From UHGV virus genome UHGV-0324485: 20,782 bases of DNA, one strand, 5' to 3'. This document shows positions 1-20,782 of the stretch, one piece after another. Within the stretch, counting starts at the first letter, position 1. Every line of letters starts with the position of its first letter. Source of the stretch: a virus. The notes under the pieces were generated by a model that was given only the letters and a program-made list of their open reading frames with translations, made no database searches and had not been told where the DNA came from. The translations under genes and the position numbers were made by a program.

Positions 1-158
1 TTATTGTTGGTGGCGAACTGTTCACTGATTACTCCGATCACCCTCGCAAACTTGTCACGCTAAATCCGAAACTCAAATCAACAGCCGCCGGACGTTACCA
101 GCTTAGGCATCCCACCAGCGTGAAAGAAGCTGGTAACGTCCGGCGGCTGTTGATTTGA
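1..158 (+). pseudogene. R: Endolysin (lambda R-like lytic transglycosylase), N-terminal fragment; 5' end lies outside the window; frame ends at TGA 156-158 inside an inverted duplication
   Basis: Frame starting at nt 3 translates to IVGGELFTDYSDHPRKLVTLNPKLKSTAAGRYQL, which matches my memory of phage lambda R, then reads RHPTSVKEAGNVRRLLI-stop through the inverted copy. Confidence 0.6.
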
Positions 159-282
159 GTTTCGGATTTAGCGTGACAAGTTTGCGAGGGTGATCGGAGT
201 AATCAGTGAACAGTTCGCCACCGAAACTCAAATCAACAGCCGCCGGACGTTACCAGCTTCTTTCACGCTGGTGGGATGCCTA
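10..282. repeat. Direct-inverted-direct duplication: nt 105-222 is the exact reverse complement of nt 10-104 plus the 23 nt now found at 260-282; nt 223-259 repeats nt 68-104 in direct orientation
   Basis: Base-by-base comparison in the sequence. The arms 10-104 and 128-222 form a perfect ~95-bp palindrome around a 23-nt spacer. Confidence 0.85.
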
Positions 283-529
283 CCGCAAGCAACTTGGTCT
301 GAAAGATTTTTCTCCAGAAAGCCAGGATGCTGTAGCGCTGCAGCAGATTAAAGAGCGTGGCGCTTTACCGATGATTGACCGCGGCGATATTCGTCAGGCA
401 ATCGACCGTTGCAGCAATATCTGGGCGTCGTTACCTGGTGCAGGTTACGGTCAGTATGAACATAGAATCGGTGACCTGATTTCCCGATTTAAAGAAGCTG
501 GTGGGGTGGTAAATGAAGCTGAGATATAA
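206..529 (+). CDS. R: Endolysin (lambda R-like), C-terminal portion; the GTG at 206 is an ORF-caller start inside the duplicated segment, not a native start
   Basis: Translation ...KLKSTAAGRYQLLSRWWDAYRKQLGLKDFSPESQDAVALQQIKERGALPMIDRGDIRQAIDRCSNIWASLPGAGYGQYEH... is near-identical to the C-terminal two thirds of lambda R as I recall it. It is in a different frame from the N-terminal fragment. Confidence 0.6.
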   Translation: MNSSPPKLKSTAAGRYQLLSRWWDAYRKQLGLKDFSPESQDAVALQQIKERGALPMIDRGDIRQAIDRCSNIWASLPGAGYGQYEHRIGDLISRFKEAGGVVNEAEI

Positions 530-2041: not shown

Positions 2042-3410
2042 TCCGGCTTTACGTAGTTTCTGGACTACGCGGGCACGTAACAAAGTGCTTTATGGTGGCC
2101 GGTCATCGTCAAAATCATGGGATGCCGCTGGCATTGCCATATTTCTGTCGAATAAATACACCCTGCGTTTTTGTTGTGCCCGTCAGATCCAGAATAAAAT
2201 CGAAGAGTCGGTGTATACCCTGCTCAAAATTCAGATAGACAGGTTTGGCCTGCGGCACCGTTTCCGGATTCTGAACAACAAAATCATTAACCGGGTTACT
2301 GGCTCGGAATTTGTTTTTTATGGATTATGGCGCAACATCGAAGAAATTAAGTCACTGGAGGGGATCGACGTGTTGTGGCTGGAAGAAGCCCACGCACTGA
2401 CTGAATACCAGTGGAAAATTCTGGAGCCAACGATCCGTAAAGAGGGTTCGGAATGCTGGTTCATATTCAACCCCGGACTTGTTACTGATTTCGTCTGGCG
2501 TAACTTCGTTGTTGATCCGCCTGAAGGCACTCTCATCCGCAAAATTAACTATGACGAAAATCCGTTTCTGTCTGACACCATGCTTAAGGTTATCGACGCG
2601 GCGCGACGCCGTGATCCTGATGGTTTTAAACATGTGTATGAGGGCGTTCCGGAGTCTGATGATGATGCGGCAATCATCAAACTGTCCTGGATAGAAGCCG
2701 CAGTGGATGCGCACAAAACGTTAAATTTCGAACCCAGTGGAAGAAAGCGTATTGGCTTTGACGTGGCTGACAGTGGTACAGATAAGTGCGCTAACGTTTA
2801 CCGTCACGGTTCCGTTGTTTTCTGGGCCGACGAATGGAAGGCCAAAGAAGATGAATTACTGAAGAGCTGCCAGCGTACTTATCAGTCGGCGCTGGAGCGT
2901 GAAGCAGATATTGTTTACGACTCTATCGGTGTTGGTGCGTCTGCCGGTGCTAAATTCTCTGAAATTAACGCTGACCGGAAGAGCGAGAATGCATACGCGC
3001 GACGTGTGAATTACCAGAGGTTTAACGCCGGCGCTGGTGTGCATGAACCAGATGACGAATACAACGGCATCCCCAACAAAGACTTTTTCGCAAATCTTAA
3101 GGCTCAGGCATGGTGGCTGGTGGCTGACCGTTTCAGAAATACGTTTAACGCCATTAACAACGGAGAACAGTATCCTGTGGATGAGCTGATCAGCATAGAT
3201 TCTCGTTGTCCGTTGCTTGAAAAGCTGAAACTGGAACTGACAACACCTCATCGTGATTTCGACCGTAACGGACGTGTGATGGTCGAAAGTAAAAAAGACC
3301 TCGCAAAACGCGAGATACCGTCACCAAACGTTGCTGACGCATTCATTATGGCCTTCGCGCCAATTGATACATCGCTGGATATCTGGGAACAGCTGGGGAG
3401 ACAGGCCTGA
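2007..3410 (+). CDS. Terminase large subunit (PBSX/Terminase_3-like ATPase-nuclease)
   Basis: Walker A-like GGRSSSKS near the N-terminus and a long C-terminal nuclease-like region. Start set at ATG 2007 (GGAGAG about 11 nt upstream), overlapping the small-subunit 3' end; the track ORF begins at 1899 and the true start is uncertain. Confidence 0.8.
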   Translation: MTSILTSKPTLNPALRSFWTTRARNKVLYGGRSSSKSWDAAGIAIFLSNKYTLRFCCARQIQNKIEESVYTLLKIQIDRFGLRHRFRILNNKIINRVTGSEFVFYGLWRNIEEIKSLEGIDVLWLEEAHALTEYQWKILEPTIRKEGSECWFIFNPGLVTDFVWRNFVVDPPEGTLIRKINYDENPFLSDTMLKVIDAARRRDPDGFKHVYEGVPESDDDAAIIKLSWIEAAVDAHKTLNFEPSGRKRIGFDVADSGTDKCANVYRHGSVVFWADEWKAKEDELLKSCQRTYQSALEREADIVYDSIGVGASAGAKFSEINADRKSENAYARRVNYQRFNAGAGVHEPDDEYNGIPNKDFFANLKAQAWWLVADRFRNTFNAINNGEQYPVDELISIDSRCPLLEKLKLELTTPHRDFDRNGRVMVESKKDLAKREIPSPNVADAFIMAFAPIDTSLDIWEQLGRQA

Positions 3411-20431: not shown

Positions 20432-20782
20432 TGGCAAAAAATGACTTTAAAGCGTTTGCAACTGATCGAAATGCCAATGTTATGTCGCAGGAGGAATGGG
20501 AAGCGTTGCCTGCGCTTATATCCGGATTTACAGCAGGGAAAGCATCCAGTGCGCAAGTCAATAAGGTTATTCGGCAGGCCAGCTTTATTGCTGCAGCTCT
20601 GGCCCAGTTTGTAAGTGATAAAACGCAACGGGATGTGCTTGATAATGGTGATCTGCCCGGTTTTGTTGAATTGCTGGGATCGGGGTTTGCTGTTGAATAC
20701 CTGAGCCGCAAGAATCCGTTTGGCGATATCAAATCGGATGGCACGGTGAAAACGGCTCTCGAAAACCTTGGTTTGGGAGAAG
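20431..20782 (+). CDS. Tail fibre protein, N-terminal part (3' end outside the window)
   Basis: Begins [49 protein letters not shown], a conserved tail-fibre N-terminal anchoring region in enterobacterial phages; the ORF runs off the window end. Confidence 0.6.

Follow-up and report, generated by a model that had tools for sequence, protein, structure and literature searches.

The window analysed here, a 20,782-nt stretch of viral DNA (UHGV virus genome UHGV-0324485), opens within an endolysin gene that is interrupted by 155 extra nucleotides in a direct-inverted-direct arrangement. We conclude that these extra nucleotides are probably a technical fold-back chimera that was kept at the tip of a contig and is absent from the prophage in the cell. 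This reading is favored because the palindrome lies 8 nt from what behaves as a contig end, because the structure is unique among thousands of otherwise identical loci, and because the joined segments share only 1–2 nt at the junctions.

The anatomy of the rearrangement (nt 1-282) was resolved by a base-by-base comparison of the window (w) with the native uninterrupted locus of E. coli S163-2, which serves as the reference (N) and is numbered such that N1 corresponds to window nucleotide 1. Specifically, w1-104 correspond to N1-104, w105-222 to the reverse complement of N9-126, and w223 onward to N68 onward, giving a net gain of 155 nt relative to the native gene. The features at this end of the window are as follows:

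1-104, plus strand: segment 1, native endolysin sequence N1-104, identical to positions 3001-3104 of the S163-2 locus (L001) and to E9.
105-222, minus strand: segment 2, exact reverse complement of N9-126 by comparison with N; 105-126 form the palindrome spacer and 127-222 the right arm.
223-529, plus strand: segment 3, native gene from N68 through its stop codon, with zero mismatches to S163-2 over 3,445 nt after removal of 105-259.
9-222, no strand: interrupted palindrome with 96-nt arms and a 22-nt non-palindromic spacer, from the repeat search and the fold energy.
104-105, no strand: junction J1, at which N104 meets the complement of N126; 1 nt (T) is shared, by comparison with N.
221-223, no strand: junction J2, at which the complement of N9 meets N68; 2 nt (CC at 221-222) are shared, by comparison with N.
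66-104, plus strand: left copy of a 39-nt direct repeat (right copy 221-259) from the repeat search; the triplicated core is N68-104.
156-158, plus strand: first in-frame stop (TGA) of the native frame, within the inverted copy, by translation.

Because of the shared nucleotides, the match of segment 2 can be extended to N127 via the one shared T, and that of segment 3 back to N66 via the shared CC. There are thus three copies of N68-104 (direct, inverted, direct) and two each of N9-67 and N105-126, and the flanks are intact. A repeat search of nt 1-1500 and of the whole window returned the 100% complementary inverted repeat with 96-nt arms (9-104 and 127-222) separated by the 22-nt spacer, a second perfect inverted repeat of 62 nt (104-165 with 221-282), and the perfect direct repeat of 39 nt (66-104 and 221-259); all remaining repeats in the 20,782-nt window are imperfect and at most 25 nt in length. 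A perfect inverted repeat of 96 nt cannot have arisen by chance in 20.8 kb, and the single-stranded DNA fold of the palindrome region has an energy of -141 kcal/mol (z = -25.7 against shuffles). The window begins mid-gene, with nt 1 being position 2 of codon 35 of a 158-aa homologue of lambda R, and the rearrangement shifts the C-terminal 107 codons to the frame of an ORF at 206-529, which has a GTG start and carries ~100 C-terminal residues.

These results agree with most of what an earlier note had proposed from the letters alone. It had read nt 1-104 as part of a lambda R-like endolysin gene, which the similarity to lambda lysozyme described below bears out, and it had described a direct-inverted-direct arrangement with nt 68-104 present three times, which is exactly what the decomposition against S163-2 gives. 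Its perfect palindrome with arms of ~95 bp proved to have 96-nt arms of 100% complementarity, and translation places the stop at 156-158 and the C-terminal part in the frame 206-529, as it had stated. Its coordinates were correct overall and off by one in the inverted copy, which starts its match at nt 9 rather than 10 and includes 22 rather than 23 additional native nucleotides, a difference that stems from the 1-nt ambiguity at the junction. The comparison with the same locus in related prophages, which it had put forward as a check, returned an uninterrupted gene, with the native sequence regained by deleting 105-259.

The identity of the interrupted gene is clear once the extra nucleotides are removed. 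Without nt 105-259, the window and E. coli S163-2 are 100% identical (3,445 nt compared), and the repaired window together with 103 upstream nt of S163-2 encodes an intact 158-aa protein identical to WP_001194120.1. In a search of PDB sequences, this native protein matched lambda lysozyme 1AM7 over residues 3-157 with E = 4e-95. Neither of the two endolysin fragments in the window had a Pfam match. In relatives, the native gene is 477 nt long and uninterrupted, and it is flanked by a lambda-family holin gene upstream and by spanin-type genes downstream; full-length similarity and this position between holin and spanin genes assign it as a lambda R-type endolysin. RefSeq labels for members of this one lambda R-type family differ between "glycoside hydrolase family 24", "family 104" and "glycoside hydrolase family protein". 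Lambda R is a lytic transglycosylase (GH104), and the GH24 label therefore looks inconsistent.

Downstream of the endolysin gene, a 130-aa ORF at 513-905 encodes an N-terminal membrane helix and has a sub-threshold match to DUF2570, while a 114-aa LysC/Rz1-like ORF with an LSGC lipobox at 724-1068 starts inside it and extends 163 nt beyond its end. The two ORFs represent overlapping spanin-type genes. In RefSeq, ORF 513-905 is annotated as a truncated pseudogene in E9 and is unannotated in S163-2, despite the S163-2 DNA being identical to the window. The remainder of the window corresponds to the late genes of a myovirus-like prophage (terminase, portal, head, sheath, tape measure, baseplate, tail fiber), and collinearity with the prophage of E. 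coli E9 at 99.9% identity extends over the entire window, except for the 155 nt; the E9 prophage adjoins pinE-pphA-yebV-rsmF. Within this region, a 249-aa ORF at 1292-2041, which is hypothetical in relatives and has weak Pfam helix-turn-helix matches, lies directly upstream of and overlaps the gene for a PBSX-family large terminase, a position that suggests that it encodes the small terminase subunit. The tail-fiber gene contains a mosaic boundary: the S163-2, 8178, DEF2/DEF10 and FEA3 prophages match the window only to 20608, and the E9, GCEC19 and CDE6306 prophages match past this boundary (20609-20782) to the window end.

The main alternative to a technical origin is a real event in the cell, in which two consecutive template switches (FoSTeS/MMBIR-like or in the manner of a miniature tandem-inversion duplication) would have generated a DUP-TRP/INV-DUP within the endolysin gene. 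We regard such an event as unlikely. The architecture itself speaks for it, since an inverted center, a triplicated core and duplicated flanks are exactly those of known inverted triplications (PMC4689423), and in the window all flanking sequence is retained around three copies, of which the middle one is inverted. The distribution of the structure argues against it. Nucleotides 1-600 are matched in 2,737 of 5,426 complete E. coli genomes; the best of these matches (100% identity) all cover 81% in two pieces and span 445 nt of the respective record, i.e., the uninterrupted gene. None of the 5,426 complete E. coli genomes spans either junction in BLAST searches with 61-nt junction probes, and exact 30-mers over both junctions had no occurrence in IMG/VR viral contigs, in GTDB-representative contigs (one genome per species) or in JGI metagenome contigs. 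Similarly, the products of the two aberrant ORFs are absent by exact look-up from a gene-position index and from ~15 billion proteins, the exact allele of the intact protein occurs in 899 contigs, and none of 80 IMG/VR loci encoding this endolysin contains an exact inverted repeat of at least 20 nt. The rearrangement is a singleton. This status, set against the 5,426 complete genomes, the 899 contigs with the intact allele and all contig collections searched, counts against a real event, which would moreover have to be extremely recent because the three copies are 100% identical to one another and the flanks are 100% identical to S163-2.

We also considered where the rearrangement lies relative to the ends of the assembled sequence. 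At the right end, the window stops 1 nt past a 26-bp site, its last base corresponding to position 26627 of the E9 locus (L002):

20756-20781, no strand: Hin/Gin/Cin/Pin-type 26-bp recombination site inside the tail-fiber gene, at the boundary of an invertible tail-fiber segment, from the inverted repeat in E9 and a 20/26 match to what we take to be the hixL and cixL reference sites.

The only exact AAACCWWGGTTT core in the window lies within this site at 20763-20774. In E9, an inverted repeat (left arm 26608-26627, right arm 28482-28501) flanks a segment with tail-fiber, tfa and pinE genes. In E9, the closest complete genome, the crossover site has an inverted partner at a distance of 1.85 kb, and the two sites flank alternative tail-fiber and tail-fiber-assembly genes beside pinE; this invertible segment resembles the Mu G or P1 C segment, a host-range switch. 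A short-read graph assembler stops where both orientations of an invertible segment are present. The break exactly at the crossover site suggests that both orientations were present in the sequenced DNA, and because the right end coincides with a repeat arm at which the two orientations would diverge, we infer that the window represents an entire contig of a short-read assembly. No k-mer with k of at least 21 is repeated in the window outside nt 9-262.

At the left end, the palindrome starts 8 nt from the terminus, and the aberrant part (nt 1-222) could be covered by a single long read or a single pair of overlapping reads. With the native 801-nt region as query, the endolysin region was found to be multi-copy in E. 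coli, occurring in up to five places per genome, and a contig break inside the endolysin gene is therefore expected. Among E. coli alleles, no mosaic boundary was found at N1; such boundaries are concentrated at the start of the gene and close to its end. We simulated a de Bruijn graph on the assumption that the genome carries the structure as a real, clonal feature. Unitigs then broke at 8/9, 126/127 and related positions when k was 96 or smaller, and there were no breaks when k was at least 97; no value of k gave a break at nt 1, demonstrating that the end of the contig is not explained by the palindrome. Consequently, either the junction-bearing reads were exhausted at the left end, leaving a dead end, or another endolysin paralogue produced a fork there. 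If a real mutation had a position independent of the contig ends, it would lie at most 8 nt from an end with a probability of ~1e-3, which together with the simulation weighs against an event in vivo. A chimera that persists only at points where the true path is unresolved is expected to lie by a contig end.

The junctions carry further information on the process. The 1 and 2 nt shared at J1 and J2 are at the level of random joins (chance probabilities 0.28 and 0.11), and reading of the native sequence revealed no inverted repeat that would pair N104 with N127 or N9-10 with N66-67 beyond these 1 and 2 nt. All breakpoints lie within 127 nt of a single locus, which excludes random ligation of unrelated fragments and indicates a local strand-switching reaction of a polymerase, in the tube or in the cell. 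For the cell, the comparison is unfavorable: the models for tandem-inversion duplication (TID) and ODIRA require a pre-existing inverted repeat at the junctions (PMC4689423), and there is none at the native site, while in a genome-wide analysis of spontaneous rearrangements in Salmonella the verified inversions had junction homology of at least 12 bp and shorter ones were inseparable from library chimeras (PMC3411829). The microhomology of 1–2 nt in the window is well below these 12 bp. For the tube, multiple displacement amplification (MDA) of a single E. coli cell yielded chimeras of which more than 85% were inverted, with intramolecular events favored and most primed on 2–21 nt (Lasken and Stockwell 2007, PMC1855051), and libraries prepared by sonication and by enzymatic fragmentation also formed local chimeras between opposite strands (PDSM model, PMC10908179).

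Our working model for the technical origin is that a double strand switch driven by a polymerase during amplification or library preparation would have generated a molecule reading N..104, then the complement of N126..9, then N68 onward. Possible settings would be multiple displacement amplification and the end-repair or fill-in of partly single-stranded fragments. The assembler may have kept this molecule solely owing to its location at the end of a contig, at a point where the true path into a lambda-type lysis gene present in multiple copies was unresolvable, and the real locus would then be the uninterrupted 477-nt endolysin gene, as in every relative. Three of the four features that define such chimeras are present: the structure lies within about one read length of the presumed contig terminus, it is absent from all related genomes and its deletion restores the native sequence exactly, and the junction homology is at chance level. 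The fourth is read support; under this model, the junction-spanning reads would be few or derive from one molecule.

Several considerations argue against a chimera. First, a plain unitig model would not fuse a rare branch to the main contig if native reads cover N65-N170 at full depth; a chimera therefore needs a path-extending assembler, low local depth, or an appreciable depth of its own, for instance because it was amplified before fragmentation. Second, it is uncommon even for library chimeras that one molecule contains two fold-back junctions, here 118 nt apart. The same graph reasoning gives a point in favor of a real event: the contig crosses both junctions and runs unbroken into 20 kb of unique sequence, as a unitig assembler with k of at least 97 would do for a clonal structure. 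Also, because the joins share only 1–2 nt, the junction k-mers must have been present in the reads, as an assembler alone cannot create them; their necessary existence is in line with a real event and weighs against a technical origin.

This last point bears on a purely in silico join, in which the assembler, a scaffolder or gap-closer, or an extension or polishing step would have strung together graph segments of endolysin paralogues in an incorrect orientation with no read across the junctions. We consider this reading very unlikely. It is known that assemblers can emit sequences that are absent from the genome (PMC9528984), and the ends of the segments have a property that graph branch points would give. 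Specifically, when the native allele was aligned with six other E. coli alleles (L003-L008; 84–95% identical), four of the five positions immediately flanking the maximal segments (N0, N8, N65 and N128) were allele-variable, compared with a density of 0.19 (binomial p ~0.005, a statistic that is post hoc and drawn from six alleles only). N65 differs in four of the six other sampled alleles, and the third copy begins at the next base, N66, a natural starting point for a unique contig, which also speaks for the technical chimera. Moreover, an APEC-O117H42-like allele has an exact run, N45-142, in common with the window allele, which for k = 77 would place the start of the unique contig at N66, the start of the third copy. 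This fits a true unique contig that began at N66, with everything leftward of it added at a graph branch point. The position of segment ends at variable sites thus hints at a coincidence with branch points of the assembly graph, and the junction k-mers would still need reads. De Bruijn and overlap assemblers require shared k-mers or overlaps, and joins with 1 and 2 nt in common provide neither; furthermore, the three segments overlap in native coordinates and cannot be disjoint nodes of one graph, and the variable sites inside all three segments carry the same allele. An origin in the assembler only is therefore largely rejected, as an overlap of 1–2 nt cannot support a join in the graph.

We also considered that a dedicated element generated the structure, i.e., inversion by a Pin-type invertase, a transposon-like insertion with target duplication, or a hairpin telomere or its resolution site. 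Relatives of the prophage encode a Pin invertase beside the tail-fiber genes, and the structure could formally be described as an insertion of 118 nt between the two copies of a 37–39-nt duplication. Nevertheless, an origin of this type is extremely improbable. The sole invertase core in the window is the one at the right end, and the motif scan of the window found none near nt 1-300; accordingly, no inverted 26-bp crossover sites with an AAACC..GGTTT core, as in Hin/Gin/Cin/Pin inversion, bound the inverted segment. In addition, a simple inversion duplicates no sequence, the "inserted" DNA merely repeats its own target, and the native site is ordinary coding sequence in all relatives. We know of no transposase that a target duplication of 37 nt would fit. 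Pin-mediated inversion, transposon insertion with target duplication and a hairpin telomere were all rejected on the grounds that recombination sites are absent near the junctions.

The stability of a palindrome of this size is no argument against a real origin. Recombination-proficient E. coli tolerates palindromes of such length: SbcCD cleaved an engineered 246-bp interrupted palindrome in the chromosome (in lacZ) once in each replication cycle, and the break was mended by recombination, with induction of the SOS response and a cost of only 0.6% per generation (PMC4213011). Because a 246-bp palindrome is tolerated, instability of the 214-bp palindrome in the window does not rule out a real event.

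The earlier note had left two readings, a real rearrangement and an assembly or library artefact. Of these, the artefact is the one favored by the location at the presumed contig tip, the uniqueness and the 1–2 nt junctions, and the real rearrangement is the less likely. By the same three arguments (8 nt from the tip, unique among loci, 1–2 nt at the junctions), its proposal that the endolysin of this prophage is inactivated and lysis blocked is unsupported as a property of the prophage. If the structure is an artefact, it amounts to a quality flag only: the first ~220 bases are to be trimmed, the endolysin gene is not to be annotated as a pseudogene, and the prophage is not to be scored as lysis-defective. 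More generally, a palindrome at a contig end whose deletion yields a perfect native sequence is best treated as technical until reads show otherwise.

If the structure is real, the endolysin would be truncated after residue 68 and followed by 17 foreign residues, and the prophage could not lyse its host with its own endolysin. A hairpin would be expected on the lagging-strand template, with SbcCD cleavage at each replication and SOS induction; the SOS response, which would be triggered chronically, is the inducing signal of lambdoid prophages, and it would act here in a lysogen whose phage lacks lysis by its own endolysin. The window would then contain a natural, base-resolved, tiny DUP-TRP/INV-DUP in a bacterium, formed without repeats at the junctions, and a natural counterpart of the engineered SbcCD palindromes in a prophage with SOS-dependent induction. 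Even so, it would be a single recent mutation, of interest mainly as a natural substrate of SbcCD within an SOS-inducible prophage.

Several known systems resemble parts of this locus. The likeness to bacteriophage lambda R (lytic transglycosylase; PDB 1AM7, 3D3D) identifies the interrupted gene and not the rearrangement. TID in Salmonella (Kugelberg et al. 2010, cited in PMC4689423), ODIRA in yeast and human DUP-TRP/INV-DUP from FoSTeS/MMBIR have in common with the window the direct-inverted-direct order, a triplicated core between duplicated stretches, and two palindromic junction regions. These rearrangements range in size from kilobases to megabases and are under selection for gene dosage, whereas the unit in the window is 118 nt, destroys a gene, is unselected and lacks such repeats. 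The lacZ palindrome of the Leach laboratory (PMC4213011) is similar in size and form to the 2 x 96 nt with a 22-nt spacer found here; it was engineered and experimentally verified, whereas the palindrome in the window is known from one contig end only. In form and context, an equally good match is provided by the inverted chimeras of MDA and sequencing libraries (PMC1855051, PMC10908179). Those described differ in that they mostly have a single junction and usually arise from 2–21 nt of complementarity or from native inverted repeats, whereas two junctions are present here. They agree with the window in joining a nearby reverse complement of the same locus, in the local nature of the event, in having little junction homology and in lacking a counterpart in related genomes, and they are normally removed by assemblers except at a contig end, which is where the palindrome appears to lie.
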